From positions 1 to 59,493 of the forward strand of contig JAUYNJ010000006.1 of assembly GCA_030696105.1 (NCBI GenBank): DNA of 59,493 nt. The letters are read 5' to 3'. The notes beneath the pieces were generated by a model, which was not told where the DNA came from, made no database searches, and saw only the letters and a list, made by a program, of their open reading frames with translations. This stretch comes from a bacterium. Its GTDB lineage: Bacteria; Patescibacteriota; Patescibacteriia; Patescibacteriales; UBA12465. Positions within the stretch are counted from its first letter, which is position 1; the number at the start of each line of letters is the position of its first letter. Shown in pieces: positions 191 through 40,070 of this stretch. The position numbers and the translations under genes are program-made.

Positions 191-210
191 GTTAATAATC
201 TACAGACTTC

Positions 211-828: not shown

Positions 829-879
829 TGCTACATATTTTTTGTTTATGTTTAATTGTTAAAGAAAAGTATCAAAAAA

Positions 880-1132: not shown

Positions 1133-1151
1133 GTCTAATAATTTTAATCAT

Positions 1152-1686: not shown

Positions 1687-1726
1687 TTTCTAGTCCTCCC
1701 ATTTTTAGTTAAACAATTTTTTTATT

Positions 1727-2041
1727 TCACGATAGAAATCTTACCCAAGCTGATCCAGCCGCAAAACAAAGTATATTGAAAAATGTTACAATAACAAAAT
1801 TTTCAAGCGGCCAGCTCGGTAAATAAAATATCAAACTATGACTTATAATACCCAATACTGTTGGTATATAAGCATCGGCTAATCTTTGCACCTCTCCCAT
1901 CTTTATTATTCTGTAAATTATAAATCCCAGAAATGCCGGGCCAATAAAAGGAATAACAGTACAAATCAAAGCGAAGAAGAAAAACACAAGCCATAATATA
2001 ATTTTAGGCTGGTAAGTCATTTGATAAACTAAATTTCTCAT
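1727..2041 (-). CDS. Small membrane protein (3-4 TM)
   Basis: 104-aa hydrophobic ORF preceded by the consensus promoter at 2089-2117. Confidence 0.55.
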   Translation of the reverse strand: MRNLVYQMTYQPKIILWLVFFFFALICTVIPFIGPAFLGFIIYRIIKMGEVQRLADAYIPTVLGIISHSLIFYLPSWPLENFVIVTFFNILCFAAGSAWVRFLS

Positions 2042-17953: not shown

Positions 17954-17982
17954 ATTATAATAAATTTTTGAAATATTCACAA
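17954..17982 (-). promoter_or_regulatory. Candidate ftsA-ftsZ promoter
   Basis: Minus strand reads TTGTGA (17982..17977, overlapping the pilD stop), N17, TATAAT (17959..17954). Confidence 0.45.
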
Positions 17983-18786: not shown

Positions 18787-18791
18787 AGCGT

Positions 18792-21062
18792 TTAATTTGA
18801 AAATAGTTCTAAGTCTACATAAGGCGAAAGAGCGGACGCTTGTCGTGCATATTCTAAAGCCATCTCCTTGTCGCCAGCCCGTTGATAGAAGCCAGCTAAG
18901 GCTAAGGGCCAATCCGCCGACTTCGGCTCACGACTAAGCGCATGTTTCAAGATTTTATCAGCCTCATTATTTCTGCCGAGCCTTTCTAATCTTCCGGCAA
19001 TGTAGCGCAAGGTACTCACATCTTCAGGGAAATTTGAATACGCCAATCGATATGAAGTCAGAGCGGAAATATCATCCTGATGCAAATCAAATATACGTGC
19101 CTTTGCATTGTGAAGCGTATAGGTATAGTAGCGGACATAGCCTTGATGATCACGATTAAGACGCTCGTCACTAATACTCGGCAGTAGGGATAAGGCAGCG
19201 TCGTAGTCTGCTAATGCCCCGCTTAAGTTATTTGCGCGGACACGACAGGCAGCACGCTCACGATAACCAAAAGGACGATAAGGACTACGAGCGATAATTT
19301 GATCATAGGCACTAGCCGATTCCTGCTCTCCTTCTAAAAAGCAACTTAAGCGAGCGCGTGCAATTTCATTATCGTAGTCCGCCCCTGGCAGGTCATTATT
19401 AATTGAAGAAATTATTTGATAAACCAAGCGCTCACTTGAAAGGTCTGGCAATGCATCGTAATCGGAGACCGCAAAAGAGCTAAGTGCCCGCTGATAATGC
19501 GCTCGGTTGACTGGGTTAAGCGCTGACTCTTCAAGATAAAGGTACATTTGCCCCATGTTATAATAATTTTTTTCTGGTCGCAGATACTGAAGTTGTAAAA
19601 AATAGTAATCAGCCTGTAGCGTGTTTAGACTCAAGTAAACTTGAGCTAAGCATAAGATAGCTAAGCCCACCCCAGCAGTCAGTACAGATAATCGCCCAAG
19701 AAGCGTAAGCTTGATACCGACATATCCATCCTCCTGTTGCCCCAAGCTAATGTTACCAGCCACCACGAAGGCCGCAATTAACCAGAAATAGAAAACGCTG
19801 GCGATATCAGTGAGTCCAAATAAAATTGATATTGAGTATGCTAACAAGGAAGACGCGGCGGCAAGGGCGAAATTTTTACCTCCCGGTTTTTTCCAAAGTA
19901 GCCAGCACTGACGGCTGAAATAAAAATAAAGGGCAACATAAAAGATAAAGCCAATAAGTCCTGTTTGTATTATGACATCAAGCAGACTATTGTGCGCCTT
20001 ATCAGTATAACCATCAACGTTCATGAATATTCCCCACTCCAGCCGGTAATATGAAACCATGGCTTCGCCCCCATTCTCTAAACCAACCCCTAACCAAGGC
20101 TTTTCAGAAATCGCGCCAATCGCTGACTGATAAAATAAACGACGCAAGGCAGTGCTGCCATTTTCAAAATCAACCAGACTCGTTAGACGTGTCGGAGCAG
20201 CCAGGTAAAATAAGGTCGGTGCAATCATGATTACGCCTCCTGCAATTAATAATGACCACCTTCCAAATCTTCGCCAGGCAAACCAGACGGCCGCCAGGCC
20301 AAGAACAACAATGAAGGCAAGCCAAGCAGCGCGAGAACCGCTAACAAGCAATCCCACTAGCTGCCAAGCCCCCAGCAAAGCAACAAAAGCCCTTACCCGG
20401 AAAGAAGAGTATTCGAAAAATGAATATACAGTTAGGGGAATAGTTAGGAGTAAAAAGGAACCTAAAAAGTTTGGTTGCCCCAACGTTGAGATGGCGCGAC
20501 TATTGAGTTGTGCTTCCTGCCACACCGTAAAATCAATACCAACAAATTGTAGGAAAGCGTAGACACCAATAAGACCACCGACTATTGAAGCTACGACTGA
20601 TAAAATCTTAAGCGCCTGCTGCCAGCCAGTCGCCACCTCCGTTTTAATTTTTACCGATAACCCGGAAAAATGGAACACGACAAGACTATACCAAACACAA
20701 AGCCAGAAATAAGACAGTAAACCAAGATGTCTTTCGTATGACCCAAACCATGACTGTAAAATATTACTTGAGAATAATGAAAGAATCGCCCAGGCGAAAA
20801 AGAAAATCCAAATAGGAGCAATTGCTCGCAGCAAACGTCGCCAATTAATTTCGAAAAATGACTGCTGCCAAGGGTGATTAATGACAATGAATAAAATCAG
20901 CGATACGGCGCCTAGGACCTGCATCCAAAAAGTCTTAACCACACTGAAAGGACTATAAACTGGGAAGAAAAAAGACATACCTAAAGGAACAACTGCCAGT
21001 GCCGCCCAAAAAGATAATTTAAACAATAAGCTTAGAATTTTCTGCCAATCAATTTTCTCCAT
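18792..21062 (-). CDS. O-antigen ligase/Wzy_C-family polytopic membrane protein with a C-terminal TPR domain
   Basis: About 12 TM segments with a Wzy_C-like loop (KAHNSLLDVIIQTGLIG). The C-terminal roughly 280 aa is soluble and TPR-like. Confidence 0.7.
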   Translation of the reverse strand: MEKIDWQKILSLLFKLSFWAALAVVPLGMSFFFPVYSPFSVVKTFWMQVLGAVSLILFIVINHPWQQSFFEINWRRLLRAIAPIWIFFFAWAILSLFSSNILQSWFGSYERHLGLLSYFWLCVWYSLVVFHFSGLSVKIKTEVATGWQQALKILSVVASIVGGLIGVYAFLQFVGIDFTVWQEAQLNSRAISTLGQPNFLGSFLLLTIPLTVYSFFEYSSFRVRAFVALLGAWQLVGLLVSGSRAAWLAFIVVLGLAAVWFAWRRFGRWSLLIAGGVIMIAPTLFYLAAPTRLTSLVDFENGSTALRRLFYQSAIGAISEKPWLGVGLENGGEAMVSYYRLEWGIFMNVDGYTDKAHNSLLDVIIQTGLIGFIFYVALYFYFSRQCWLLWKKPGGKNFALAAASSLLAYSISILFGLTDIASVFYFWLIAAFVVAGNISLGQQEDGYVGIKLTLLGRLSVLTAGVGLAILCLAQVYLSLNTLQADYYFLQLQYLRPEKNYYNMGQMYLYLEESALNPVNRAHYQRALSSFAVSDYDALPDLSSERLVYQIISSINNDLPGADYDNEIARARLSCFLEGEQESASAYDQIIARSPYRPFGYRERAACRVRANNLSGALADYDAALSLLPSISDERLNRDHQGYVRYYTYTLHNAKARIFDLHQDDISALTSYRLAYSNFPEDVSTLRYIAGRLERLGRNNEADKILKHALSREPKSADWPLALAGFYQRAGDKEMALEYARQASALSPYVDLELFSN

Positions 21063-24764: not shown

Positions 24765-25751
24765 TTATTTTTTCATTAAAGTCACTGCCATCATTCTGAA
24801 GATTTCCAGATAGGGGGCAGTTTCGCCTGATCTAATATATGATAGCACGTAGATCCGCGTGCCCTCCTCACCGAGAAAATAAGCAATATAACCATCAGCA
24901 CTGAAGATGCCGGGGCCAAAATTGCTATCAATAAAGCGATCTACGGTTAATGAGCCAACACCTGAAAACTGCGTTTTATACCAAGACAGGATATCATCGT
25001 ATCTCATTTCTGCATCTTCATAAGAAATTTGAATGAAAGACTCATCAGGCGCAGAAAATAAAGTTGCACCCGGGCTGACGGTGTTTACTTCCCAAGCATT
25101 TGGATATAAAAGCGCATAAGTTCCGTCAACTGGTGCGTATAAAGCCAGTTTACGGTTTTCAGATAATTTTCCAGGACCCGTTGGGTCGTAACCACTTAAG
25201 ATCTCAGAGAGATCATCGTAGCCGTCGCCATCACTATCAGCGGATTGAGGATTTGTTCCTAAATATAATTCAGCGGCATCACTTAAACCGTCTCCATCAG
25301 CGTCAGCTGGCACCGGCAAGACAATTTCTACTACAGCAGTCTCCGCTACTTCCTCAGAGCTCGTAGCTACCGTCTCAATAACTGGCGTCTCTGGCACAAT
25401 TATATCGACTGGCGTCGCTACCTCAGCGACTATTGGCGAAGCCACTGTCTCCTGGACAACAACTTGATTGCTTCCCTTCATCGCAGGCACAATTAAAAAA
25501 CGATAAGCTAAAAAAAACAGCACGCCAACCACCACAATGCCGGACCCAATTATAATTAGGCCCGTTGATTTAGCTTTGTCATGGTTCTCATGATTTTTAG
25601 AAAAAGTACTTTTATCATTGCCACTGCCATCATAGCTGGTCGCACTAAAGCGAGAAAATGATGGCATGTTTTTTACCGTAAAATCCTTTTCTAATTTCGA
25701 CCACATTTCATCATTAGTTTTTTCTGATTCCTTAGTCTTAATTTTATTCAT
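24765..25751 (-). CDS. Single-pass membrane-anchored protein with thrombospondin type-3-like Ca-binding repeats and a C-terminal globular domain
   Basis: TM segment LIIIGSGIVVVGVLFFLAY, a P/V/T/E-rich linker, then DADGDGLSDAAE...DSDGDGYDDLSE. Confidence 0.7.
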   Translation of the reverse strand: MNKIKTKESEKTNDEMWSKLEKDFTVKNMPSFSRFSATSYDGSGNDKSTFSKNHENHDKAKSTGLIIIGSGIVVVGVLFFLAYRFLIVPAMKGSNQVVVQETVASPIVAEVATPVDIIVPETPVIETVATSSEEVAETAVVEIVLPVPADADGDGLSDAAELYLGTNPQSADSDGDGYDDLSEILSGYDPTGPGKLSENRKLALYAPVDGTYALLYPNAWEVNTVSPGATLFSAPDESFIQISYEDAEMRYDDILSWYKTQFSGVGSLTVDRFIDSNFGPGIFSADGYIAYFLGEEGTRIYVLSYIRSGETAPYLEIFRMMAVTLMKK

Positions 25752-25958: not shown

Positions 25959-26624
25959 TTACTGTAGCTTACCTTCACCTTTAGGATTATAGCCATTCTT
26001 CACTTCGTCGCCATCGCTGAAGCCATCGCCATCAGTATCAGGATTTAAAGGGTCTGTACCGTAGATATATACCTCTTCATAATCTGAGAGGCCATCAAAA
26101 TCAGAGTCAATTAAATTTGGATCTGTGCCCAAAGCCATTTCCTGTGCGTCAGTGAGACTATCGCCATCAGAATCAACAGGGGCGACTACGACTGGAGCTT
26201 CAACCACTGGTGGAACGATGGGATTAATTACAGCAGGATCCTCAGCTATTGGTGAAACAACATTATTATCACCCGTTACCACATTTGTGTTAGTTGAGGT
26301 CGAGACTGGCGGAACGACGACGCCACTATTTACCGTTAAGGCATCATCTGCGCTTGGTTTGATGAACTTGGAATAAATAAGATAGGCAGCAGCTCCGATA
26401 ATTACCGCGCCCAACAAGATAATTAAAATTGATTTAATTTTTGGTCCGTGTTTGCCACCGTCTGCATCCCCTTCTCCATCATACTGTTGAGCGGCTAAGC
26501 CGGCAGGACTGGCTTCTATGTTTGCATCTCCTTGCGACACACGAGGAGTCGTGGCGTCGGTCTCAGCGAAGATGTCGTCGACCGCGGATTTAGTGGCGGG
26601 TTGATTGTTGAGTTCGTTAAACAT
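25959..26624 (-). CDS. Single-pass membrane-anchored protein with three thrombospondin type-3-like Ca-binding repeats
   Basis: TM segment [19 protein letters not shown], a P/V-rich linker, then [18 protein letters not shown] and DTDGDGFSD at the C-terminus. Confidence 0.7.
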
Positions 26625-26704: not shown

Positions 26705-27001
26705 CTATTTGAGCGTCTCAATATCAGTAATAATATCTGTCTCATCGCGAATAATTTTGTACGATATTACCTCGCCGTTCTCGTCACGACCGAGAACTTG
26801 TACGCGCGTTGCTTCCTGCAAACCCAGCTCAATTTTTTCCTGATTTTCCATAAAGTGAATATCCTGTGGTCGCATTTCAGGAGTTATATCGGGCAAGGTC
26901 ACTCCGTGTTCTTTTTGCAAAAAAGAATAGATAGCCCAGGTTGACGCGAGCATAAGTAACACAATGATGACTGGAATCAATATTTTTTTTGGTAATTGCA
27001 T
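26705..27001 (-). CDS. Small N-terminally anchored protein
   Basis: 98-aa ORF with one N-terminal TM or signal anchor. Confidence 0.5.
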   Translation of the reverse strand: MQLPKKILIPVIIVLLMLASTWAIYSFLQKEHGVTLPDITPEMRPQDIHFMENQEKIELGLQEATRVQVLGRDENGEVISYKIIRDETDIITDIETLK

Positions 27002-27016: not shown

Positions 27017-29932
27017 TTAGTTTGCTTCACCACCCTCTGGATCTTCTTCGACAGCACAGTATACATAACTACTTGCACACATACTGTTCGCGCAACAAAC
27101 TTGGTTTACACCACATAAATGACTACCGATGTTGCAGCATTGTTGTGTTGCAGGATTATAACAAGTTGTTCCACAAAGCAGGTGGCCATCAATTGGACAA
27201 GGACCAGTATTTTCTACTTCACACGCACCATGGGGCCAGACCTCATTATTCCAAACATAGCCAGCCGTACAAGAGCAACTTATAGCCTCACAGTCATACT
27301 GTCCGTCGCAGTTATATAATCCAATCGAGCAACTGGCAATGCAGTTACCGCTAAGCGTTGAGCATTTATTTGAATTTATCCCGCAATTCTCAGGGTTTGT
27401 ACGGTAATAGCACTGGTCGCCGCAACGATATTGTGAGGGGCCACAGGCAGCGCATTCAGTATTACTTTCACAGCCGGGAACACTTGCGTCACAATCATAC
27501 CAACCTGCATTACAAACACACTGCCCAGCAATTGGTGATTGATTTGCGGCATCGCATTGGCAATCAGCTAAGCATTCACCGGTCTCCCATGGTATCGTCG
27601 ATCCTGAAGCTGTAACTAGTTTAACCTGACAAATACCATCGCCGCAATAGCCACCACCATCCTCGGGACCACCGCCGAGATATCCGCAAAATACTTTATT
27701 ACTAGGAACCGGAAAAGGCACAACAGTACCAACTTTAGTGTTGCAGCCGTATTGAAGATTTGAGTGACTGTTGCCAATTTTACCTCTATTTAAAATGATA
27801 CCACTTGTACCGTCACAGTCTTCGTGACCGTCATTATAATATCCACCGCGCCCCTCAAGGTTTGGCTGCTGCCTAACGCCGTCACCACAATAACTATTAA
27901 TACCAAGAGTAAATTCACGAATTGACTCAGCGCCAAACTCGTTCACCGCTTTTATTTTTATCGGGAAAGAGGGGTTGATAACCGTTGGCCTGCCCGTTAG
28001 AGCATAAAACAAACTCTGAGTAGCAGCGGTTGCTCGCTGCGATAAACCAAGGAAAGTGAGAATGCGATTAATAATCGACTTTGCCTCCAGTGGTGGCTCG
28101 CCTACTTGTGTGCTGCCACTAAGGCTAATGCCGGCAGGCAAAGGCCCAATAGCGCTGTAAGTGATAGTGTGATCGCCTTGCGTTCTCCAGCCTAAACCGC
28201 AGTAATATTGATAGCCGGCACGCACAGATTTTGCGCAGTTGAAATCCAACAAAGGATGCTCGGCTTTAACTAAAATATTAATCTGTCTAGTGGAAGCGTT
28301 ATTATAACTATCTCTTCCAGTGATAACGTAAACGAAGTTAGTGTCTCTTGAATACTGAGGTATCGTCAATAGGCTGTAATTTAAGGTGTAGTAAACAGTA
28401 TCCCCTACTCGGTTTGAGGTCTCCCCTGAAAAAGTAGCGTTTGCTGGGGACAGCAAGTCAAATGGGCCTGAACTGTACTGTGCTTTGGTAATTGTATAGG
28501 AAACAGGCTGATGTTTATCTGTAATACTAAAGCGTATAGAAAGAGGCAGGACGGTGCTTGGGTAATATTGAATATCATCAGAATGAATCAGCGGCGCATT
28601 GTTTCTAATAACAATCGGGGTCACAGTTGCCAAATTACCACCTCGACCATCAGTCACGGTTAACGACATATTGTAAGTACCAGGAGCGCCCGCAGATTGC
28701 GCATATATTTTTTTCTGATTTGGGTTAGTGGTGTCCATGAGAATTGGTGGAGCACCAGCGACATTATTATTTTTCCAACCAGACCAGGTTGTACCGCCCG
28801 TATTCAATGACCACTGCAAAGGGTTACCTTCCGGATCTAACACCCTAATTGAGCCATTGAATGCTTGGTCAGTTTCGCCCTGAAGGTTTGTAGAGATAAG
28901 AACCGGAGCACTATTATTACTGGAACCGATGTAAGCAGCTCCACTTAACACACAACCGAAATCTTCTAACTGCCCCTCGGCGGTGTTGTAACCTAGAGCC
29001 TTTGTTTCCATAGAAGCACAGAGACTGAAGTTAGAACCGGTGGCGTCACCGCTATAGACGTAAGCGTAACTTCCAGCCGGCAGCTCAAGAGTACTGTCAT
29101 TTGGTTGAGGGTCACCAAAAGTTCTTGTCTCCTCATTCCAGCAAGTTATCGGATCAAAGCCTGCGCAAGCACCGAGACTGTTTATTGGGTCAACTAATTT
29201 TTGTGCTGCACCTAATTGTGGCAGAAACAAAGATTGCCAACTTGGCCAAACAGAAATTGAATTCAAGGGAATATAGGTACCAGCACCAAGCACTGGATAT
29301 TTATTGTTCTTGTTTTTAAAATTTGCTAGGGCAAAACGAATTTCACCAAGGGAACCGAGGCGTCTGACATCGCGAGCTACTTTTGAACGCAGGTTGTCAC
29401 AGAATATTCCCTGACCACAATCCTCATCGGTGTAGCAAACATCGTTACCGGCGACGCAGTCCCCAGAAGAGGCGCAGCGTATGGTTGAAATTGCACACTG
29501 GCCAGCAGCGCTTAAATTACTATTAAACTTCCAATGTTTAACAATCTGTCCTAAAACATCAACTGTTTTAAAATCGGGATTTTGATTATATGAAATCAAG
29601 TAGATATTAGTATAAATCGTTCCATTATTAGTATCTACATTGGCGGCATTGACATAAACGGTACGCCCATCACGAACGGCGTCGTAACCATCGACAACAA
29701 GGGATTGAGGTGAGCCAGAAAATCCTTGATTACTATACCAGCGCGACGCACTGTAATGATTTGGGTTGGGTAAAATACGAACCGCAATGACATCATTGTC
29801 CTCACCTATTGCTCCAGCTCCAAATTGTGAGACATCAGGAGCTCCCTCGGCCGCTTTACCGGCAAGTGGCCACAATAATATAAGCAGGGCAGCAAGCCCG
29901 GCTAACTTAAAAAAGTAGCGATAGTTCTTCAT
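27017..29932 (-). CDS. Secreted 971-aa cysteine-rich protein with an internal pilin-head-like motif and a Cys-dense C-terminal tail
   Basis: Sec-type signal peptide. SKVARDVRRLGSLGEIRFALANFKNKNNKYP...LVDPIN resembles the conserved start of type IV pilin/GspG globular domains. YCGDG...E(D/C)CD repeats. My hand count is about 48 Cys, 30 of them in the last roughly 210 aa. Confidence 0.75.
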   Translation of the reverse strand: MKNYRYFFKLAGLAALLILLWPLAGKAAEGAPDVSQFGAGAIGEDNDVIAVRILPNPNHYSASRWYSNQGFSGSPQSLVVDGYDAVRDGRTVYVNAANVDTNNGTIYTNIYLISYNQNPDFKTVDVLGQIVKHWKFNSNLSAAGQCAISTIRCASSGDCVAGNDVCYTDEDCGQGIFCDNLRSKVARDVRRLGSLGEIRFALANFKNKNNKYPVLGAGTYIPLNSISVWPSWQSLFLPQLGAAQKLVDPINSLGACAGFDPITCWNEETRTFGDPQPNDSTLELPAGSYAYVYSGDATGSNFSLCASMETKALGYNTAEGQLEDFGCVLSGAAYIGSSNNSAPVLISTNLQGETDQAFNGSIRVLDPEGNPLQWSLNTGGTTWSGWKNNNVAGAPPILMDTTNPNQKKIYAQSAGAPGTYNMSLTVTDGRGGNLATVTPIVIRNNAPLIHSDDIQYYPSTVLPLSIRFSITDKHQPVSYTITKAQYSSGPFDLLSPANATFSGETSNRVGDTVYYTLNYSLLTIPQYSRDTNFVYVITGRDSYNNASTRQINILVKAEHPLLDFNCAKSVRAGYQYYCGLGWRTQGDHTITYSAIGPLPAGISLSGSTQVGEPPLEAKSIINRILTFLGLSQRATAATQSLFYALTGRPTVINPSFPIKIKAVNEFGAESIREFTLGINSYCGDGVRQQPNLEGRGGYYNDGHEDCDGTSGIILNRGKIGNSHSNLQYGCNTKVGTVVPFPVPSNKVFCGYLGGGPEDGGGYCGDGICQVKLVTASGSTIPWETGECLADCQCDAANQSPIAGQCVCNAGWYDCDASVPGCESNTECAACGPSQYRCGDQCYYRTNPENCGINSNKCSTLSGNCIASCSIGLYNCDGQYDCEAISCSCTAGYVWNNEVWPHGACEVENTGPCPIDGHLLCGTTCYNPATQQCCNIGSHLCGVNQVCCANSMCASSYVYCAVEEDPEGGEAN

Positions 29933-29955: not shown

Positions 29956-32900
29956 TTACTGCGCAGCAACTAGATTAATTACTATTTCCGTCGATTTATT
30001 ACTTTCATTATTTGATGCATCGAGCGCCGATAAACTGAAATAATGATTACCCGCGCTAAAGCCAACGGAGCTAATTTCAATGAAAGAGGCACCATTTTCA
30101 GAGTCAAAGGATTCGCCATATTGACCGCTGGAAACACCGTGATACAGGCGGTGAAACAAGGCGCCGGTCTGTAGGCCGTGCCAAGTAAACCTGATACGTT
30201 GACCACTTTGAATTGTCCCTACTAAGCCTTGCGGAGTCGCGGGTGCAATTTGATCAGTCACAGTCGCCTCTTTCTCGTTAGACAATACGCTTTCAACCTG
30301 GGCAGCGGAAATGGCTGACACCTTAAAACGGTGAGTCACATCAGTCTGTAAATTCTTTAATAGATAGCGACAAGTATATTGCTGACCTGAAGTCGGAGTT
30401 GTGGGAGTGCAAACGGTTCCCTGACCAGCAGCATAGATATCAGTCGGCTTCACATCAAGGAACGACATGTTTCCAGAATTAATGGGCGCGTAATATAACC
30501 GGAATCTGCCCATCTGCGCAGGATTAGCGTTATAAATTAAATTAGAAGAGCTGTTCCATTCGAGTCTAACGGTTTCACCATCCTGCTCGTCAACAGCGGC
30601 TGTAATAGCCCCCGCCTGGGGCGTCGACTCCTTGAAGAAATATGATTCCTTAAGCACGTCCCAAATACAGAAACCGTCACCGACGCCATCGAAATTATTA
30701 TCAGGCCCACAGGTGGCGCCAACATTAGAACAAGCGCTTCTGCCCTCACTGCAAATTAAAGCGCTGCCAGTGCCGCGAATGACTGCGGGGTTAATCATGG
30801 CTGGCAAATCATCGCTAAAGCCATCTTTGCCCGCATCGCGGCAATAATAGAATTTATAGTTATAGGGCTGACAGTTACCAATAGCACCGGCGCAAGTATC
30901 CACCCAAGGAGACCAACTCTGAGTTAGCGGGTTAACCGGCGGCCAAGGATTTTTACATAAGAAGATATATAGTGGAGTTTCACCGACTAAACCGTCACCA
31001 TCGTCATAAGCATTACAACAGTTATTGATACAATTTGGTTCCGCACAAACACAGGATGATGAAGGGTTACACTGCGGCTCCAAGAAGCGATCCATATTGA
31101 TAGTCGAGCGCAGCATGGTTGAATCATCCGTAACTCCACTAGTCATCTCGACGAAGGCTCGATTATTTTCTAGGCCGGTGATTGAACGAATCGATGCGAT
31201 TGAACTTTTTACAACATTCCATTGCCAATCCCAGAAATATCCCTGAGTCGGATAAAGAATCTGACCATTAGAACTAAAGGCGCGCACCGCAAATACCTTA
31301 TCGCGATCACTCTTAGTATCAAAACTATTACTCTGTGGATCCGTGTCATTTTCATTTAAATCATTGGCGTCATTTTGGAATAAATAAGAGGAAGGTTCTG
31401 TCTGAGTATAATCAACCATACAAATACCGCCATTTGCACCCTGTGCTGGTAATGTGGCGAACGAAGCGATATAGGAATTACTGAACGCTAGGTTGTTAAA
31501 GGTGATGCCACTACCTTCAACATAAACGTTGCCGTTAAGGTCTAAGTAGCCACGACCATTCATGCCTAACTGCCAAGAACTCATGACGCCAGAGTTACTG
31601 TCAAGAACCTGATCTCCCTTAACAACGACATAATAATTAGAACCAGCGGCTAATAACTTTTGGGGGGTGAAAGTAGCCGTGGTGCGGTTACCATTATTAG
31701 TGGCTGAAACTGTTCCCGGAACTGAACAATAGAGCTTTGAGGCATCAGGGATGCCAGCCAAAGCCGAGCCTGATTTTAACCCAGTTGTGCTTAAAATTGT
31801 TCTAGTTACTTGAGCTAAGCGCGCTGCAAGTCGTTCAAACCAATTGCGTTGCGGTGTTACAAAACCGTCTAGAGCTGCCACGAAAGTGCCTGCCGGGCAG
31901 ATGCCAACACCATATTCATGCTCCTCTAACAAAATAATATTACTCATTAAACTTACTGGATCCATCAACTGATCAAAAGGAATGCTAATCGACGCATTAC
32001 GACAAACGCCGCTCGTGCCGTGAGCTGGGTTCAAAGCGCTTTCAATAACAGACGGACGCGCCCTGCAACAAGTGCCAGAATCGCAGCCTACATTCTCAAG
32101 GTCGCCACAATCAAGGTCCGCGCTACAACCGCAACAGAGTCCGCGGTTTTCACCTGAACAAGGAGCTTGGTCAGGCTTACAGACAAGATTAAGACCACCA
32201 CTATTTAAACTACTACAGGAAGCTGCATTGCCGACCTCACAACAACAGGCGCCACAATCACCACCTGGTAAACCGGCGCCGCCGCCTTCAGCTAAACAAG
32301 CATAGGGCGAGCCGCAGAAGGAGGTATTACAAGTCGGATCAAAAGTGCTAACACTTAGACAGTCAGTTCCAGGCAAGGGCTTAATATCAGCATAAGGGCA
32401 GTCCCTTACGCACTCACTTTTGCTCTTATAATCTCCTGTTCTGAGCTTCACGTCAGTTTCACACTGCTTATCAAGTGGAGGCGCCTTACAATCATAGTAG
32501 GCACAGTAGCCGTCATCGGTCTTATCAGTGCCACCAACACATTCATTTTGTTCAAAATCATAACAACATTTAGCCGAAGCGCCGCAGGCCGCTTGGTCGC
32601 CATTATATTGGCTGCAAGCGGTACCACCAGGATTAGCTTCACAACCACTAACACACTTAAAGATACTGGTAAACTCGCCGTACATTGTCGGCGTAGTTGA
32701 TGCGCACTGAGCTGGGTCACCAGGAGGTGTGGAGCTTGGACTTGCACAATCATAGAAAGCGCAATATCCAAATTCTGGGGCGTTTTCATCAGTTGTAATT
32801 AACTGACCGCTTCCACCAGTACAAACATCATCAGATGGGTCAGCGGTTCCTTTAGAATTAAGGCAGCAAGTCGCACTGTGAACTAAACAATCATCAGCCG

Positions 32901-35805
32901 ACAAGCGACTACAATCACCACAGTTACCGTTAACGGTTGTAGTGTCACAATATTTCCCGGAGAACTTATCACAATTACAAGCGGCGTCAGAAGCAGCCGT
33001 GTCAACGACACCGCCAACTTCCACGGTACAACCAGTACACTCGCCTAAGTTGGCCTGTCCTGATCCGCAAGAGTCGCCACAGGTTAGACCAGCACAGCAA
33101 TCACGAGCATCTTGGCCAATTACGCAGCAGCAATCACATCGCGCCGCTTCGGTTGAAATACATTTATTGTTAGTACAGGTGGCTAACCCCGTGCAAAGCT
33201 CAGTGCTGACACAAACGCCTTCCGCATTGCCACTATCTTGCTTACAGCTGAAACCGGACTCACAAAGATTACACGTCGAAGTATTAGCGCTAACACTATC
33301 AACACAACGATTATTATCTAACCTCACCCAGCCACTTGGACAAGAGGTCGAGGTTGTAATTTGCCAGTGTGCTTGGCCTCCAAACTGAGGGAAGATACTG
33401 CAAGAACGGTTGGCACTAAATTCTTCGTCTCCCAATTGGAAGGTATAAAGTGAGTTCAGCGAGCAGGTGCTGTTACTTAGAATACAAGCATCAAAAGTAG
33501 AGCTATATGTGCAGTCGTTACCGATACAGGCTGGAACGCTGGCGCAACTAGAATCGCAAGGACCGAGGTCGCGAGGTGCTCCAGCGAAGGGTGAACAGAC
33601 ACCAGGAGAATTTGGACAGAAGGCATTAATCTGACAGGCGCCTAAAGCTTTGGCCATGCCGTCACAACTGTCATATTCTTCTTCACCCGTGCCCGTACCA
33701 AATCCTGTGTCAAAGCCCCATTCAAAAACCGAACGTGGAATATTGATATAACAACTAGCTAAAGTCGGAGCGCATCTTCCCTGTTTGTATGTACCGGCAG
33801 GACAACAAATTTCACCAGAACAGTCAGCATCAATACTACAGGTACCAATTTCAAAATTTACATCATTACCCCAAGTACCGTTTTTAACGACCCTAACCGG
33901 ACCACTAACTGAAGCCGGAGGGGCGTTGGGATTTAAGCGGTCAGCGCCGCGGTCAGAGGTGATAATTCCGCTGACGCCCTTATCACGACTAAATACTGTC
34001 AGGCCGCTTGTTCCTAAATCCCCAAAATATTCACCCCAGAGTGTTACTGGTGTTCCAATGGGACCGCGCGGAGGGGAGATTTTACAAATACTACTTTTTA
34101 AAGCTTCATTGCTATTAGCAGTAAAGACATTCGGATTGGCGTTTTGCGAAGTAACCAGAACCCCGCTTAAATCGACTTTAATCTCATAATTTCCATCGCC
34201 CAACTCCGAAGGAACTTTTACAATAATCTGTTTATCTTTCCAGATAGATGACGCGCACGCTTCTGGGAAAATGTAACTTGCCTCCTGATCACCGAAAAAA
34301 ACTTTTGACTCCCCTTTAGCACCGCCGAAACCGCCGCCGTGTATAGTAACGTATTGCCCGGCGCGACCAGTTGTTGGCTCAAAATATGAAATATAGGGGC
34401 CGGCGTTTGGCTCCTCTTGTTTTACAAATTTTACATAATTACTTTTTTGCGCAATACCATTAACAGAGCTGACCACAAAACTACTCATGCCACCTTTTTG
34501 TAAATTAGGAATAGTTGAAGTGCCGACCAAGCCGGCCGGATTTGCAAACACAGAATCTAAGCCGCGCACATTACGAGCGTAATCACCAAAGTATGCTTGC
34601 CCGCCACTATATAAGTTAATGCCAAAATAATTTACCTTATCACTTAAGCGCCCGGATTCTGGAGTTAATAAACATAAACCAGGGCGAACGAGGTCGTTAG
34701 CAATAAAATCTGGAAGAACGGGGCCAATATCATCATTTGTTGTATCACTCTGACTATCAGCAGCCACTACAGTGAGTGGCCCGGAGACTGAAGATGGCGG
34801 TATAGCCACCACAATCTGATTATTCGTCCAGGAATCAATACAATCAGGATTAACCAATGACGGAGAAATGCCAGGTAGACCACCAGCAAATAATACTTGA
34901 CTGCTCGTCGGATCATAGACACCAAAATTCGTGCCCATGATGGTAATCAAGTTGCCGTCTGCGCCATTAGGTGTCACGACGTCGCATTGCTGACTACAAT
35001 CACTATCACTTAAGCAGGCCCTATTCGCGTCTTCTTCACAAAAGCCACCGAGAGGACTGACAGCCGTGATGACGGGTTGCCCCTCGCAGACACACGAAGT
35101 CTCCCCGCAACTTAAGTATTCGCCGCATAAATTATTATCCGCCTCACAAGTCGGTGTTAAGTCATCGCCATCACAAGAATCGCCGAGTTGTCCTTTGGGT
35201 AAACAGGCGCAGGAATTAGTGTCGCAGTAACTATCGGAGGCACAGATTTGATCAACTGCCTGGCAGCCAGGAAGCAAGGTGTTGCCATCGCAGCTAACCG
35301 GACCGCCGCCGGAATTACAATCAGAGCCGAGGCATGGCCCCCAGTAACCGTCAGTGCAAGTCATGCCACCACCACAGCCACAGGCAAGTGTTTGGCCGGT
35401 AGTACAGGAGCTGCTGCCCCCGCTATTATTTGTCGCGCCTAAGAGACTGTTTAAAATAAAGGTTGCAATTCCCCATGAAGCTAGAATAATCAACAAACCA
35501 ACCACACCATTACGCAAGATCTTTTTTGCTTGATCAATTTTATCCTCTTGACCACCGGCCGTCATCCAAACAAAACCGCCCCAGAGAATCAGACCAAGCG
35601 CCAATAGACCTAGCACCGACATGGCGATATTTATAATCCGAGCTACGACTGTACGAGGATCATCCTGTGTCAGGCTAATGTTGTTACCAATTTCATCCAT
35701 GCCGACATCAACTTGTGCTATAGCGACACGGAAAAAGGCTAAGCTACCGAGAATTAGTATGCTTAAAGCCAGGTAACGCAAAATATTGGTTTTTGATCTT
35801 AACAC
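29956..35805 (-). CDS. Giant 1949-aa surface protein: signal peptide, VirB2/TrbC-like two-helix module, Cys-rich modules, IPT/TIG-like domains and C-terminal FN3-like domains
   Basis: GTG start. Residues 32-125 are paralogous to the 881-aa protein. Three IPT/TIG-like segments (PVITAVSP..ITIMGTNFG; GPYISYFEP..VTIHGGGFG; KISPP..VTLWGEYFG). About 124 Cys by hand count. FN3-like C-terminus. Confidence 0.8.
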   Translation of the reverse strand: MLRSKTNILRYLALSILILGSLAFFRVAIAQVDVGMDEIGNNISLTQDDPRTVVARIINIAMSVLGLLALGLILWGGFVWMTAGGQEDKIDQAKKILRNGVVGLLIILASWGIATFILNSLLGATNNSGGSSSCTTGQTLACGCGGGMTCTDGYWGPCLGSDCNSGGGPVSCDGNTLLPGCQAVDQICASDSYCDTNSCACLPKGQLGDSCDGDDLTPTCEADNNLCGEYLSCGETSCVCEGQPVITAVSPLGGFCEEDANRACLSDSDCSQQCDVVTPNGADGNLITIMGTNFGVYDPTSSQVLFAGGLPGISPSLVNPDCIDSWTNNQIVVAIPPSSVSGPLTVVAADSQSDTTNDDIGPVLPDFIANDLVRPGLCLLTPESGRLSDKVNYFGINLYSGGQAYFGDYARNVRGLDSVFANPAGLVGTSTIPNLQKGGMSSFVVSSVNGIAQKSNYVKFVKQEEPNAGPYISYFEPTTGRAGQYVTIHGGGFGGAKGESKVFFGDQEASYIFPEACASSIWKDKQIIVKVPSELGDGNYEIKVDLSGVLVTSQNANPNVFTANSNEALKSSICKISPPRGPIGTPVTLWGEYFGDLGTSGLTVFSRDKGVSGIITSDRGADRLNPNAPPASVSGPVRVVKNGTWGNDVNFEIGTCSIDADCSGEICCPAGTYKQGRCAPTLASCYINIPRSVFEWGFDTGFGTGTGEEEYDSCDGMAKALGACQINAFCPNSPGVCSPFAGAPRDLGPCDSSCASVPACIGNDCTYSSTFDACILSNSTCSLNSLYTFQLGDEEFSANRSCSIFPQFGGQAHWQITTSTSCPSGWVRLDNNRCVDSVSANTSTCNLCESGFSCKQDSGNAEGVCVSTELCTGLATCTNNKCISTEAARCDCCCVIGQDARDCCAGLTCGDSCGSGQANLGECTGCTVEVGGVVDTAASDAACNCDKFSGKYCDTTTVNGNCGDCSRLSADDCLVHSATCCLNSKGTADPSDDVCTGGSGQLITTDENAPEFGYCAFYDCASPSSTPPGDPAQCASTTPTMYGEFTSIFKCVSGCEANPGGTACSQYNGDQAACGASAKCCYDFEQNECVGGTDKTDDGYCAYYDCKAPPLDKQCETDVKLRTGDYKSKSECVRDCPYADIKPLPGTDCLSVSTFDPTCNTSFCGSPYACLAEGGGAGLPGGDCGACCCEVGNAASCSSLNSGGLNLVCKPDQAPCSGENRGLCCGCSADLDCGDLENVGCDSGTCCRARPSVIESALNPAHGTSGVCRNASISIPFDQLMDPVSLMSNIILLEEHEYGVGICPAGTFVAALDGFVTPQRNWFERLAARLAQVTRTILSTTGLKSGSALAGIPDASKLYCSVPGTVSATNNGNRTTATFTPQKLLAAGSNYYVVVKGDQVLDSNSGVMSSWQLGMNGRGYLDLNGNVYVEGSGITFNNLAFSNSYIASFATLPAQGANGGICMVDYTQTEPSSYLFQNDANDLNENDTDPQSNSFDTKSDRDKVFAVRAFSSNGQILYPTQGYFWDWQWNVVKSSIASIRSITGLENNRAFVEMTSGVTDDSTMLRSTINMDRFLEPQCNPSSSCVCAEPNCINNCCNAYDDGDGLVGETPLYIFLCKNPWPPVNPLTQSWSPWVDTCAGAIGNCQPYNYKFYYCRDAGKDGFSDDLPAMINPAVIRGTGSALICSEGRSACSNVGATCGPDNNFDGVGDGFCIWDVLKESYFFKESTPQAGAITAAVDEQDGETVRLEWNSSSNLIYNANPAQMGRFRLYYAPINSGNMSFLDVKPTDIYAAGQGTVCTPTTPTSGQQYTCRYLLKNLQTDVTHRFKVSAISAAQVESVLSNEKEATVTDQIAPATPQGLVGTIQSGQRIRFTWHGLQTGALFHRLYHGVSSGQYGESFDSENGASFIEISSVGFSAGNHYFSLSALDASNNESNKSTEIVINLVAAQ

Positions 35806-35872
35806 AGTATTGAAACGGTTATAAGCAAAAGCAATGCTTTACGCCGATAAGCCGGAAATAATATAATATCCT

Positions 35873-38518
35873 TTACTCACAATTACCATTGTCGCCTAAC
35901 ATAGCGCTCGGAACACCATAACAACATGAAGGGTTTTCAGCGTCTGCCTCACAATTTGGTCCAGCACTTGGTTTATAGCAATTTTGGTAAATATCTTTAA
36001 CTCCCGAGCCGACCTGCGCATTATAGGTCACAGACGACTTCATCGGGGTGTGCGATAAGTAAACGTAAGTTAAGTCAGGCTCACCGTCTAGCGGCGCCAC
36101 ATCCCTATTATCAGCTGTCACCCAATAGCCCAATGGGTTAGGAGTAGAACTAAAAATATTAAGCAAGCGATGCTCAATATTTGTCTGACCGCTCTTAACC
36201 ATGGTGCTGCCGGTGCGTAAACTACTATTCATCATTAAGGTGTTGAAAGCAATTTCGATTGGAGCGTCTACAGGCACGTTGCCAGCACTGTTCACAGGAT
36301 TAATAGAAGTAATGCGCGGTGGCTCCGACATGATGGTGTCATTAATATAAAATGACCAACGATACTTATCTTTCAATTCAAAATTTGAACTATCATTTTC
36401 GTTGTAAAACGCAATCGGTCCATCCGCATAAACATCGCGGTTACCGTCGAGAGAATTTAAAGCAGCGTCGACAACGCCATCAAGAGGACTGAGAGCTAAA
36501 GGATAATTTTTGCCGTTCGGGTCCTGACAAATATTTTGACCGAGACTATTCGCCTGACAAAGGGTAAACGGCTGATAGCGAGTGCAATCAAAATTTGTTT
36601 CACAGGTTCGAAGATTGGCGGCGACTAATTGCACGGCTAAGTGACTATTGGCCGGCAAACAATATATTGTTTCGCCACACCCATTCATCCCACATTCCTT
36701 GTCCGAAATAAACTCAACTGTTTTATAGGCATTACTAACCATAAACTTTCCGGCAAGATAATCGCCCCGGCAGACGCCGGCATTACAATCATAAGAAGCG
36801 CAACCACTATTACTTGTGCAGACAGCGCCGTTCCCGGTACTTGACTCAGCGTTAACAATGCGGATGCTATTACTAACTTCATCAGCAGAACCGGACAACT
36901 GTATGGGGTTAATACCTTCATTAAAATTAATTTGAATGACTGAATTCATCGGCCTATCCTTCTTGTCGCGAGACTCCTCAATACGTACTAAGTCTTGCCC
37001 ACCATTAAAAGGGGTTAAAGCTAACGCTGCCGCGTTGTTGGTGTTAAGAATAATATTATTACCAGCGCTACCAGCAATTTTCACCGTCAGCGCTACTCTT
37101 GAAGCAACTTTATCCACATTAATATCAGGATGTCCACTCAACTTACTATATATTTCAGTCGCAACATCTTCGGTATTACAGGAGGGACCATTTACTAAAA
37201 TATTATTACCAGAACTATTAGATGCGAAGGTGTAGACCAGAGTGCCAACACGAAGATTGCTCGCTAAAACTTCCGGCGCGACACTAACTACCCAGGAGTT
37301 TCCAGCCTGATGATCGTCCGCAAGTAAAGTGAAGAAGCCACCAAAGACCGCTTCATTTCCCTGCCAAGCAGTCACACCCAACAAAGTAGAGCCCGTAAAT
37401 AACTGCGCTTGAGTATTATCACTAGTAACGCTTACTACATAGTTATTATAAGATGCATGGTAATCAGAAGCGATGACAGCGGAAGCGTCATTTAAACCCG
37501 CTTGTCTCGTCACTGAAATAATCTCAGCTGCTTGGTATATGTCGGGGCAAGCCTGTACCTGTATGGCCGCACTTGCGTTTACAGCTGCTTGGCTCTGCCC
37601 AAATATATCTTTCTCGTTATCGGGTAAAGGGAAAATTCCGCCTCTTACGATCTGGGGTGGGGTTAAATCAATTGTATTTGTTACCCTAAAACTCCATTGT
37701 AAATAATCACTGAAACAAGTCTTAAATATTGAATTCCCGTCTTCTTTCTTAATTCCACTCGTAAGTCGAACGCTATAGTCTACATCGCCCTCTGCTTGCC
37801 CGAGAAAATCAGTCGGCATAATTACAAAATCTTGACTATCAGCAGAAGCTTGTATCGTTGCGGCTGTAACGTTTTGGACGCCGTCACCCATATCATTTCT
37901 AAAAATCTTGATGTTGCTAGGGTTGATAAGATTGCAGCTTGTGCTGCAGGCGCAGCTACTTCCAGCCGCATCCTGACAAACGGTATCGAGCATAATCGCC
38001 TCTTTGAAGCTAACCATGATAGAAGTATTTCTCGCCACCCCTCTTTGTCCATCTTCCGGGTAAACGCGCTCAACTGTACAGGCACCAATGGCGCCGGCTC
38101 CGGTTAAGAGCGGTTGGTTCGGTGTGTTAATGCCAAAAAATCCACCATTCGTCGCCCCCAAGAGACGGTTCAAAACGAAGGTGGCTATACCCCAGGCTGA
38201 GAGGATAATAATTAAACCGATTACGGCGTTTCTTAAAGTCTTCTTAGCTTGATCAATTTTTTCTTCACTGCCGCCGCTTGTCATCCAAATAAAGCCAGCG
38301 TAAATAATCAACCCGACCGCAATCACCCCAAGAAATAGGAGGGCGATATTAATGATGCGAGCCACGATGATACGTGGATCAGTGGAGGCCAGCTGAATGC
38401 TATTTTCGATTGGCTGTAATCCGATGTCAACATTTTGCGCTAACGCAAAATCAGCTAGGCCAAACCCCGCGACAAGGAGCGCGAGAAATAATAAAAAAGA
38501 GAATAATCTGCAGCGCAT
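35873..38518 (-). CDS. 881-aa surface protein: signal peptide, VirB2/TrbC-like two-helix module and Ig-like (SbsA/Big-type) domains
   Basis: Residues 29-123 align with the 1949-aa protein (about 62 of 95 identical by eye). Ig-like domain starts VERVYPEDGQRGVARNTSIMVSF and PPRITSINPVNSAGNVPVDAPIEIAF. About 25 Cys. Confidence 0.8.
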   Translation of the reverse strand: MRCRLFSFLLFLALLVAGFGLADFALAQNVDIGLQPIENSIQLASTDPRIIVARIINIALLFLGVIAVGLIIYAGFIWMTSGGSEEKIDQAKKTLRNAVIGLIIILSAWGIATFVLNRLLGATNGGFFGINTPNQPLLTGAGAIGACTVERVYPEDGQRGVARNTSIMVSFKEAIMLDTVCQDAAGSSCACSTSCNLINPSNIKIFRNDMGDGVQNVTAATIQASADSQDFVIMPTDFLGQAEGDVDYSVRLTSGIKKEDGNSIFKTCFSDYLQWSFRVTNTIDLTPPQIVRGGIFPLPDNEKDIFGQSQAAVNASAAIQVQACPDIYQAAEIISVTRQAGLNDASAVIASDYHASYNNYVVSVTSDNTQAQLFTGSTLLGVTAWQGNEAVFGGFFTLLADDHQAGNSWVVSVAPEVLASNLRVGTLVYTFASNSSGNNILVNGPSCNTEDVATEIYSKLSGHPDINVDKVASRVALTVKIAGSAGNNIILNTNNAAALALTPFNGGQDLVRIEESRDKKDRPMNSVIQINFNEGINPIQLSGSADEVSNSIRIVNAESSTGNGAVCTSNSGCASYDCNAGVCRGDYLAGKFMVSNAYKTVEFISDKECGMNGCGETIYCLPANSHLAVQLVAANLRTCETNFDCTRYQPFTLCQANSLGQNICQDPNGKNYPLALSPLDGVVDAALNSLDGNRDVYADGPIAFYNENDSSNFELKDKYRWSFYINDTIMSEPPRITSINPVNSAGNVPVDAPIEIAFNTLMMNSSLRTGSTMVKSGQTNIEHRLLNIFSSTPNPLGYWVTADNRDVAPLDGEPDLTYVYLSHTPMKSSVTYNAQVGSGVKDIYQNCYKPSAGPNCEADAENPSCCYGVPSAMLGDNGNCE

Positions 38519-38575: not shown

Positions 38576-38584
38576 ATTATAACA
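38576..38584 (-). promoter_or_regulatory. Extended -10 element (TGTTATAAT on the minus strand) for the surface cluster
   Basis: Mirror-image TGTTATAAT lies 58 nt upstream of the 881-aa gene ATG, with TTCAAG 16 nt upstream. Confidence 0.4.
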
Positions 38585-38609
38585 TAAATGCCTAATTCTT
38601 GAAAACGAC

Positions 38610-40070
38610 ATGACCATAGATCGCATTATCAACAAGTTCCTAGAGAAGCATCCGGACGAAGATCCGACGATGCTTCGTTTAGCGTACGATTTTGCGGCCG
38701 AAGCACATGGCGGGCAACTGCGTAAAACCGGTGAACCTTACATTCAGCACCCCCTTCATACCGCCTATATGCTGGCCGAAATTAATGCCGACCTACCAAC
38801 CATTGTCACCGGCCTAATTCACGACGTCCCCGAGGACACAGACTATACTTTTGAAGATGTTGAAAAGAATTTTGGAGCCGAGGTTGCAACTCTAGTCGCC
38901 GGTATCACAAAGTTGGGGAAAATTAAGTACCGCGGCATCGAACGTTACCGCGAAAATCTGAAAAAAATGTTTTTAGCGATGTCTACTGACATCCGCGTCA
39001 TTTTTGTTAAATTCTGCGACCGCTTGCATAATCTACGCACACTAGAAGGACTACCTCCTTCAAAGCAAAGAAGAATCGCTCAAGAAACCCTTGAAATATA
39101 TGCGCCAATTGCGGGCATGCTCGGTATCTGGCGTCTCAAATGGCAGATGGAGGATATCTGTTTCAAGTATCTTTACCCGCAAAAGTTTCAGGAACTTGAA
39201 CAAGAATACGAGGTTGAAAAAAAAGCTGAACGTAACCAGTACTTCCAAAAGATTAAAAGTGATCTTCTGCCGCGCTTAAAAGACGCTAACATTAAGTACG
39301 ACCTTGAAGTCCGCTTTAAACATCTTTACAGCATCTACTTAAAAATGCAGCGAAAGGATCGTAAATTCGACGAAATCTACGATGTGTTTGCCTTAAGGGT
39401 CGTAGTGCCAACAATTGATGATTGTTATAAAGTACTAGGCATTGTTCATACTCTCTGGCGGCCCAAGCCAAACCGCTTCAAAGACTATATCGCCGTCCCT
39501 AAGCCTAATGGCTATCGCTCATTGCATACAACCATCTACGGCCCCGAAAATAAAGCAGTTGAATTTCAAATTCGTACTCAAGAAATGCACGACGAAGCGA
39601 TGTATGGTCTCGCCGCTCACTGGTATTATAAAAGCAAAAGTGAAAAAGGCATGCAGCCGATGTGGGTTAAAGAAATTGTGGAAATTCAAAAAGAGATTTC
39701 TGACACCAGTGAATTAATTCGCAATATTAAACTCGACATCTTTAATGACCGCATTTTTGTATTCTCTCCGAAGGGAGATGCCTTCGAATTACCAGAATAC
39801 TCAACCCCTATCGACCTCGCCTATGCTATTCATACAAATATCGGCAACCAGGCAACTGGCGCCATTATTAACGACCGTCTAGGAAAGCTTGACCAGGAAT
39901 TAAAAAATGGAGACCTCGTTGAGATAATCACCGATAAATCCCGACAGCACCCTAATCGCGATTGGCTTAAGTTTGTTAAAACCAAGAGGGCCCGTGACCG
40001 TATTAAACAGTTTGCTAAAAAAGGACCGCTCGAAAACATTAAGCGCTTTATTCCAGGAATGAACAGATAG
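38610..40070 (+). CDS. rel: Short bifunctional RelA/SpoT homologue (HD hydrolase, synthetase and TGS domains only)
   Basis: HD domain (HPLH...HDVPEDT), synthetase motifs YRSLHTTI and EFQIRT, and a TGS-like C-terminus. Only 486 aa, so the usual C-terminal regulatory half is absent. Confidence 0.85.
   Translation: MTIDRIINKFLEKHPDEDPTMLRLAYDFAAEAHGGQLRKTGEPYIQHPLHTAYMLAEINADLPTIVTGLIHDVPEDTDYTFEDVEKNFGAEVATLVAGITKLGKIKYRGIERYRENLKKMFLAMSTDIRVIFVKFCDRLHNLRTLEGLPPSKQRRIAQETLEIYAPIAGMLGIWRLKWQMEDICFKYLYPQKFQELEQEYEVEKKAERNQYFQKIKSDLLPRLKDANIKYDLEVRFKHLYSIYLKMQRKDRKFDEIYDVFALRVVVPTIDDCYKVLGIVHTLWRPKPNRFKDYIAVPKPNGYRSLHTTIYGPENKAVEFQIRTQEMHDEAMYGLAAHWYYKSKSEKGMQPMWVKEIVEIQKEISDTSELIRNIKLDIFNDRIFVFSPKGDAFELPEYSTPIDLAYAIHTNIGNQATGAIINDRLGKLDQELKNGDLVEIITDKSRQHPNRDWLKFVKTKRARDRIKQFAKKGPLENIKRFIPGMNR

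Follow-up and report, generated by a model that had tools for sequence, protein, structure and literature searches.

We analysed a stretch of 59,493 nucleotides (nt) from a Patescibacterium (contig JAUYNJ010000006.1 of assembly GCA_030696105.1; hereafter the window, to the whole of which all positions refer), in which two adjacent genes on the minus strand encode very large proteins that begin with the same pilin-like module. The short partner (35873..38518, ATG start) encodes a protein of 881 amino acids (aa), and the long partner (29956..35805, GTG start) one of 1949 aa. Both match the Pfam family PF18895 (T4SS_pilin, where T4SS stands for type IV secretion system), together with PF13205 (Big_5) in the short protein and with TIG and Big_5 domains in the long one. 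Neither has the small, module-only size of about 110–150 aa.

The shared head module

The two heads have the same layout. The short protein begins with a Sec-type signal peptide of n-h-c organization (residues 1–27, 38438..38518) that ends in ...FALA↓Q, with Ala27 invariant in 117 orthologues, and the long protein with a signal peptide of residues 1–31 (35713..35805) that ends in ...VAIA↓Q. The mature heads span residues 28–122 of the short protein (38153..38437) and residues 32–125 of the long one (35431..35712), all on the minus strand, and consist of a polar segment with a DPR motif, a long helix, a basic loop (GG.E(D/E)KIDQAKK.LRN) and a second long helix, in agreement with the layout given, from the letters of the window alone, in the original prediction for this locus. 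An AlphaFold2 model of the full short protein, based on 117 orthologues, has a mean predicted local distance difference test score (pLDDT) of 87.2 and places the helices at residues 48–79 and 85–122, ahead of a disordered linker and an all-beta ectodomain. The isolated head of the long protein is modelled as a hairpin as well (104 residues, helices 19–51 and 56–96, pLDDT 78.7), and matches PF18895 with 47.8 bits.

A BLASTP alignment of the two N-termini contains 65 identities in 100 positions with one gap (E 3e-46). The gapless block of 95 positions reported earlier, with 62 identical residues, was recovered with exactly that count; the residue numbers given for the short protein were off by one, the block being residues 32–126 of the long protein and 30–124 of the short one, and the nucleotide ranges translate into the peptides that had been assigned to them. 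The likeness described at the DNA level is also present, since both strings that had been singled out occur exactly twice in the window, once per module and with the same offset of 2719 nt, where chance would give 0.00 and 0.17 matches. Nucleotide identity between the modules is 65.3%, and the same codon is used at 27 of the 62 identical residues, compared with 23.4 ± 3.5 expected from codon usage. The likeness of the heads is therefore kept at the protein level and does not reflect a recent DNA copy, and recent gene conversion in this genome was rejected because synonymous codon identity is at chance level. No third copy of the module was found in the window by tblastn; an open reading frame of 104 aa at 1727..2041, considered as a small pilin, gave a weak match only (22% identity, E 1) and had no Pfam support. 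The description of the two proteins as otherwise unrelated is roughly right, with no BLAST similarity past the heads, except that Big_5 immunoglobulin (Ig)-like domains occur in both ectodomains.

The full proteins score 41.4 and 39.4 bits against PF18895, for which the gathering score is 26.6. With the head alone as query, 53 proteins were retrieved, and nearly all of these are stand-alone PF18895 proteins of 108–150 aa from Patescibacterial metagenomes, with 41–62% identity. In the alignment, these stand-alone pilins stop a few residues past helix 2, exactly where the giant proteins go on. The closest of them sit in tandem arrays of 6–11 pilin genes, one array lying in a Falkowbacteria genome. 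All 54 members of the closest family match PF18895, and 35 of them also match PF04956 (TrbC/VirB2), with a best E of 7.9e-7. When the family profile was compared by hhalign with seven annotated VirB2/TrbC pilins of MPF_T plasmids, a probability of 76.3% (E 2.2e-5) was obtained over 66 columns that begin at a shared Asp-Pro and stay in register over both helices; the AxA↓Q leader end is likewise common to the head family and to genuine VirB2/TrbC pilins, in which it is invariant. The best NCBIfam match of both heads is NF045849, 'Mbov_0395 pilin-like conjugal transfer protein' (E 6.7e-10 and 2e-6), with scores of 38.5 and 27.4 bits that lie under the 40-bit cut-off and mark the heads as related to that family, not members of it. 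The only relative found on a plasmid belongs to a Pontibacillus megaplasmid (39% identity over 64 residues), on which a VirB4-like ATPase and a peptidoglycan hydrolase are encoded 4 kb away.

The heads do not carry the prepilin-peptidase site of type IV pilins (G↓F/M...E); their Sec-type signal peptides end in AxA↓Q, and behind these come a polar segment and the two helices. A prepilin peptidase is encoded in the window (17977..18912), yet its motif is lacking in both heads. Taken together, these data strongly indicate that the approximately 95 residues after the signal peptide belong, as a genuine member, to PF18895, the family of small Patescibacterial T4SS pilins. The earlier assignment to VirB2/TrbC-type pilins is supported by the PF18895 match of both heads and by the register of the family profile with real VirB2/TrbC proteins, and we accept homology to this class at the level of sequence profiles, not of structures.

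Ectodomains, conservation and genomic setting

Each giant protein has only three hydrophobic segments, all of them within the first ~125 residues, and no further hydrophobic segment of the membrane-spanning type was found in the ectodomain of the long protein. The loop between the helices contains four Lys/Arg residues, the preceding segment one, and the 40 residues after helix 2 none to two. After the head lie 24 of the 25 Cys of the short protein and all 124 of the long one, and both ectodomains are acidic. The topology was derived from such heuristics (charge, hydrophobicity and Cys) rather than with a dedicated predictor; the charge distribution and the placement of the Cys put the loop in the cytoplasm and the large C-terminal parts outside, and the heuristics agree with the extracellular location claimed for these parts. 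The two points on which the original prediction had staked itself thus came out in its favour, a profile match having been obtained and the C-terminal parts having been placed outside the cell. The evidence strongly indicates that the two long helices of the head form a hairpin, whose ends both lie outside the cell and whose basic loop is cytoplasmic; a flexible linker then leads to the part on the cell surface, a very large chain of Ig-like and TIG domains that is acidic and rich in disulfides.

The linker of the short protein (residues 123–138, 38105..38152, minus strand) is rich in Gly, Ser and Asn and disordered, with pLDDT values below 50. The ectodomain behind it (residues 139–881, 35876..38104, minus strand) is all-beta and contains the 24 Cys and two Big_5 stretches. 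A Foldseek search identified it as a tandem of adhesin-like Ig folds, with matches to cadherins, SdrE, the Ig domains of LdtMt2, CopC and the insert domain of FlgL; a catalytic role was rejected, as no enzyme fold was present among the matches. The 124-Cys ectodomain of the long protein (29959..35430, minus strand) consists of Cys-rich modules between which lie IPT/TIG domains and one Big_5 domain, and its C-terminal region, read by eye, appears fibronectin-like.

Conservation is distributed unevenly along the short protein. Expressed as the fraction of identical residues in the family, it is 0.61–0.76 in the head, ~0.5 in the ectodomain and 0.27 in the linker. All positions that are invariant in the free pilins, those of the DPR motif on the outer side and of the loop on the cytoplasmic side among them, are retained in the heads, which are up to 62% identical to free pilins and 60% identical to each other. 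In the AlphaFold2 model, the helices of the short head are 32 and 38 residues long, which is longer than a bilayer needs.

Full-length relatives of the short protein form at least 256 clusters, have 860–950 aa and 44–86% identity (best 120 listed), and all combine PF18895 with Big_5. They occur in at least 212 species-representative genomes, mostly labelled Falkowbacteria or Patescibacteria, and the closest named relative belongs to Candidatus Falkowbacteria HGW-Falkowbacteria-2 (86% identity). The neighbourhood of the gene was surveyed in 80 loci that were kept, with some gene counts made over 83 loci. A second pilin-headed open reading frame of 1500–2400 aa lies directly downstream of the short gene in ~71 of 80 loci, a divergent relA/spoT upstream in 73 of 83, and, downstream on the same strand in 59 of 83, a gene for a Cys-rich secreted protein of ~1000 aa. 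In the window, this third gene (27017..29932, minus strand) encodes 971 aa with an ordinary signal peptide and no pilin head. The gaps between the three genes are 67 and 23 nt, and no convincing terminator was found between them; the cluster is divergent from relA/spoT (38610..40070), across a gap of 91 nt. A promoter-like site, TTTTCA-18-TG-TATAAT (38576..38605, minus strand), was located by a consensus scan only, 58 nt upstream of the start of the short gene.

The flanks of the related loci contain relA/spoT, hisS and lepB, and this conserved chromosomal synteny rules out a mobile-element origin. The data strongly indicate that the two pilin-headed genes and the gene for the third secreted protein form an ancient chromosomal operon. 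The architecture is real, old and common in this branch, and is neither a mobile element nor an assembly artefact.

To see whether the two heads evolve together is difficult from a tree, because an orthologue-versus-paralogue tree of the heads is unclear, with few columns and much constraint; identity classes and permutation tests were used instead. Over 69 genomes, the identity between short and long heads is 60.4% within a genome and 50.2% between genomes. The excess is seen in 99% of the genomes (permutation p ≤ 0.0002, and likewise with a reduced alphabet). If the duplication predates the species and the heads had evolved independently, within- and between-genome identities should be equal, and the excess therefore points to co-variation or occasional conversion. 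By nearest-neighbour analysis, the heads group by type in 65 of 69 cases, and the own paralogue is the nearest head in 3 of 69 pairs. The pattern is one of co-variation or occasional conversion, not of wholesale homogenisation.

A profile search of 1.84 billion representatives revealed 69,915 members of the head family at E ≤ 0.001. The best 150 include 75 single-head proteins of up to 200 aa, 58 proteins with 2–12 tandem heads, and 15 long proteins (>350 aa; 387–3354 aa) with one N-terminal head; those of the long single-head proteins that were checked are relatives of one of the two families of the window. The multi-head chains (P0174 with 820 aa, P0191 with 1147 aa, P0240 with 1775 aa and 55 others of the best 150) are built of 2–12 tandem PF18895 hairpins with a unit of ~117 aa, and the units of P0174 follow one another without intervening signal peptides. 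Such chains may represent true 'poly-pilin' membrane proteins, or else gene-caller read-through of pilin arrays. In one long protein, P0287 (3354 aa), a pilin head, regions like those of the 1949-aa protein and a region like the 971-aa protein are fused in a single chain; the last region matches residues 46–309 of the 971-aa protein with 33% identity (E 4e-46). As a Rosetta-stone fusion, P0287 therefore indicates a functional link between the second and third genes of the cluster.

A gene of ~890 aa with a pilin head and without the long partner is found in six loci (L003, L059, L064, L068, L070 and L072; ~7000–13900 in each), where it sits between a PilT-family ATPase with a TIGR00375 PHP-like protein on one side and recA on the other; TIGR00375 was not seen in L072, whose contig ends just downstream. 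This setting is a second conserved context, beside genes for type IV pilus retraction and recombination.

Downstream of the cluster, the window contains a gene for a 98-aa single-pass membrane protein (26705..27001, minus strand), with a gene of ~100 aa and poorly conserved sequence at the same place in two related loci (L002 and L004). Next come two membrane proteins with TSP3 calcium-binding repeats, directly downstream of the giant-protein cluster: one of 221 aa (25959..26624, minus strand; Pfam TSP3_bac), which is present in 31 of 83 loci, and a second at 24765..25751 (minus strand). The remaining window is that of an ordinary Patescibacterium chromosome, with ftsZ/ftsA, secDF, nrdD/nrdR, clpP, gyrA, hisS, ruvB, lepB and the prepilin peptidase. 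The gene of the latter (A24 family; 17977..18912, minus strand) overlaps by ~120 nt the end of 18792..21062 (minus strand), which encodes a 756-aa Wzy_C/O-antigen-ligase-like protein with TPR repeats, and its TTG start was perhaps called too far upstream. The right edge carries a Mutator/IS66-like transposase fragment (58442..59380, minus strand), and the left edge (1..2000) is AT-rich (GC 0.32, against ~0.43) with small hydrophobic open reading frames only.

As noted earlier, the 59-kb window has no VirB4-, VirB6- or VirB8-11-type gene. It holds none of VirB3 type either, and its sole T4SS-related gene encodes a soluble VirD4/TrwB-like ATPase (8376..10349, minus strand) 25 kb from the pair. 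In this 657-aa protein the P-loop match starts at residue ~22, which leaves no room for an N-terminal membrane anchor, and the C-terminus carries a CxxC-x17-CxxC zinc ribbon. In Patescibacteria, VirD4/TrwB-like homologues are reportedly common, and the genes for most of them lie far from virB4.

Membrane anchor or assembly handle

The head could be a passive anchor or an assembly handle, and the evidence leans towards its being more than an anchor. The reading that we favour, tentatively and with confidence somewhat short of even, is that the two genes encode modular pilins of the VirB2/TrbC class, in which the hairpin acts as anchor plus assembly handle and the whole protein as a minor or tip pilin. 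Each protein would be exported by its Sec signal peptide and cut at AxA↓Q. The hairpin would then, most likely, dock the two proteins to each other and to the pilin-handling machinery of the cell; the giant proteins would be built into a T4SS-like pilus as rare or tip subunits, and would present their adhesin-like ectodomains to the host cell, the role that VirB5 or PrgB has in other T4SSs. The hairpin is probably not just an anchor, because it is under the same constraints as the free pilins and co-varies between the partners. The F pilus has the inter-helix loop facing its lumen and both termini on the outside (PMC5018250), so that an extension at the C-terminus is compatible with the geometry of a VirB2-type filament. 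Falkowbacteria genomes are among those listed as VirB4-positive in Table S1 of a survey of Patescibacterial T4SSs, in which no PrgB-like adhesin was detected (PMC12102498).

Several observations weigh against this reading or limit the family assignment behind it. Because of the size of the ectodomains, 90–200 kDa, it is impossible for every subunit of a tightly packed five-start filament to carry one, and on steric grounds the giants could plausibly serve only as minor or tip subunits. Nor would a filament be needed by a long stalk of Ig domains, which could reach through the wall from a membrane anchor. The formation of pili by PF18895 proteins is inferred in the literature and was never shown experimentally (PMC12102498; PMC10633639; PMC12624023). 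Regarding the genomic context, the VirB3/VirB4/VirB6-type neighbours expected of TrbC/VirB2 pilins are not present at the pair, no T4SS gene was found among the called genes within 10 kb in two inspected syntenic loci, and the flanks of the 80 scanned related loci hold relA/spoT, hisS and lepB, not T4SS genes. Of the profiles proposed earlier as a check, PF18895 is matched by both heads, but PF04956 is not reached, as neither full-length protein matches it at E ≤ 0.1 nor the isolated long head at E ≤ 1. A sequence-profile search of the PDB gave 0 hits, and in a Foldseek search of the PDB with the modelled hairpin, a bare fold that carries little signal for this method, the best E was 0.77, with generic helical hairpins and no VirB2 or TraA among the 50 matches listed. 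Finally, occasional gene conversion, instead of functional coupling, could have made the two heads co-vary.

The alternative that survives best takes the hairpin as an anchor only, recycled as a stable two-helix membrane anchor, possibly within a hetero-oligomer of heads, with no extraction by a T4SS and no pilus; the two giants and the third secreted protein would make up a surface complex or an S-layer-like coat, which the hairpin would hold on the cell. We give this possibility considerable weight, although we would not bet on it. It accounts well for the housekeeping rather than T4SS character of the conserved neighbours, for Ig-like chains long enough to span the wall unaided, for the P0287 fusion, which points to a surface complex, and for the difficulty of fitting bulky cargo into a filament. 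It accounts less well for the head itself, since the passive anchor of a surface protein is normally conserved least and here the head, with its DPR motif and loop, is conserved most; the helices are much longer than a bilayer needs, and the heads resemble free pilins as closely as they resemble each other.

A second alternative is that the giants are pro-proteins, whose linker is cleaved after export to yield an ordinary small pilin and a giant protein that is released or stays bound to the wall. RP4 TrbC, which is trimmed at its C-terminus, is a loose precedent. The linker is disordered, rich in Gly, Ser and Asn and poorly conserved, and the free pilins end exactly at the linker point. However, no conserved cleavage motif is visible in the linkers of the 117 orthologues, no protease gene is conserved in the cluster, and small pilins are already supplied by separate gene arrays in this lineage. 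We consider such a pro-protein improbable.

If anything, it is harder still to credit that the heads are not relatives of pilins and owe their likeness to the composition of any two hydrophobic helices joined by a short loop. The structural search that returned only generic hairpins, the lack of a sequence match in the PDB, the hhalign probability of only 76% and the failure of the window heads to reach PF04956 would all suit this explanation. Against it, both heads pass a curated Pfam threshold and are 41–62% identical to hundreds of small proteins of one family, with the conserved non-hydrophobic motifs AxA↓Q, DPR and WMT.GG.E; TrbC is matched by 35 of 54 relatives, down to E 7.9e-7, the relative in Bacillota lies within a VirB4 cluster, and PF18895 proteins are treated in the literature as VirB2 homologues of Patescibacterial T4SSs (PMC12102498). 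That a small pilin gene was joined to a downstream giant gene by gene calling or assembly is effectively refuted, even though 58 of the 150 best family representatives are multi-head and some of these may be read-through artefacts, by the recurrence of the same uninterrupted architecture and length in independent assemblies (NCBI, JGI, ENA and Logan) of at least 212 species and at least 256 clusters, and by reading frames that are open in the window under table 11.

The reading of the giants as modular pilins with an anchor-and-handle head can be extended to a more specific arrangement, in which they would be the first modular VirB2-class pilins: a T4SS-like pilus would be primed or capped by the giants, the heads forming the first layer of the filament and the ectodomains, with the third protein, a host-recognition tip that replaces VirB5/PrgB. 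We think this extension rather unlikely to hold in full; if true, a large branch of the ultrasmall epibiotic bacteria could have its host range set by the tip complex.

Comparison with known systems

The module family is already known. Small VirB2-like pilins of Patescibacteria have been published, as 'VirB2 arrays' of their T4SSs (Quinonero-Coronel et al. 2025, PMC12102498) and as a pilin array that is essential in Southlakia epibionticum (Wang et al. 2023, PMC10633639), and some long proteins are labelled 'pilin' in public annotation. The heads described here share with these small pilins the family (41–62% identity), the signal peptide, the DPR motif, the two helices and the loop, as well as the phylum and a chromosomal rather than plasmid-borne location. 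By contrast, the small proteins have 110–150 aa and end after helix 2, whereas 750 and 1820 extracellular residues follow here; and the small pilins are encoded in arrays of 2–11 genes, often near virB4, unlike the fixed pair beside relA/spoT with no T4SS gene within 10–25 kb. Long pilin-headed forms are not mentioned in either of the two papers (PMC12102498; PMC10633639). VirB2-class or PF18895 heads on giant ectodomains, an operon with two such heads and the co-variation of heads are not described in the literature searched, an absence that is not proof of novelty.

With canonical VirB2, TrbC and TraA, the heads have in common a cleaved leader ending in AxA↓Q, a two-helix hairpin with a short basic loop, a profile in register and an expected membrane topology with both ends outside. 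They differ in their distant sequence, falling short of PF04956, in a C-terminal extension that makes cyclisation impossible, in the lack of adjacent virB3-virB4-virB6 and in a monoderm host; no canonical VirB2 with a large C-terminal domain was found described within the literature searched. The Mbov_0395 family (NF045849), from integrative and conjugative elements of Mollicutes and Bacillota, is the best NCBIfam match of both heads, but its members have about 150 aa and are borne on such elements or on plasmids, and the window proteins score below the family cut-off.

Among T4SS components, the tip protein VirB5, the PrgB-type adhesins and the 'extended VirB6' proteins with large hydrophilic domains are candidate functional equivalents of the giants, as adhesion modules of the surface or tip (PMC12624023; PMC12857230), to which they have no sequence relationship. 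By its VirB2-like pilins the Patescibacterial T4SS stands apart from most monoderm systems, and the one species in which this was tested cannot grow as an epibiont without it (PMC10633639). In the Patescibacterium Mycosynbacter amalyticus, cryo-electron tomography revealed, between epibiont and host, a conduit of tube-like shape and 8.6 nm in width (PMC11880426), in the same width class as the 8.7-nm F pilus, and this conduit may be a structure built by PF18895 pilins. For the component of this T4SS that makes contact or forms the tip, and that is still missing, the conserved pair of pilin-headed giants offers a concrete candidate. Their architecture is conveyed by neither of the names now in use, 'pilin' and 'Ig-like domain-containing protein'.

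The closest functional analogy is provided by modular type IV pilins and tip adhesins of the PilY1/PilC type (PMC13533445), in which a pilin-type handle carries or recruits a bulky adhesive module on the filament or its tip. The two pilin classes are unrelated, with a Sec AxA site and a two-helix hairpin here and a prepilin-peptidase site and a single N-terminal helix with a globular head in type IV pilins. Type IV pilins are known to carry large cargo, and for conjugative pilins no such case was found in the literature searched. Should the anchor-and-handle reading be correct, VirB2-type pilins can carry large cargo too, at their outward-facing C-terminus.

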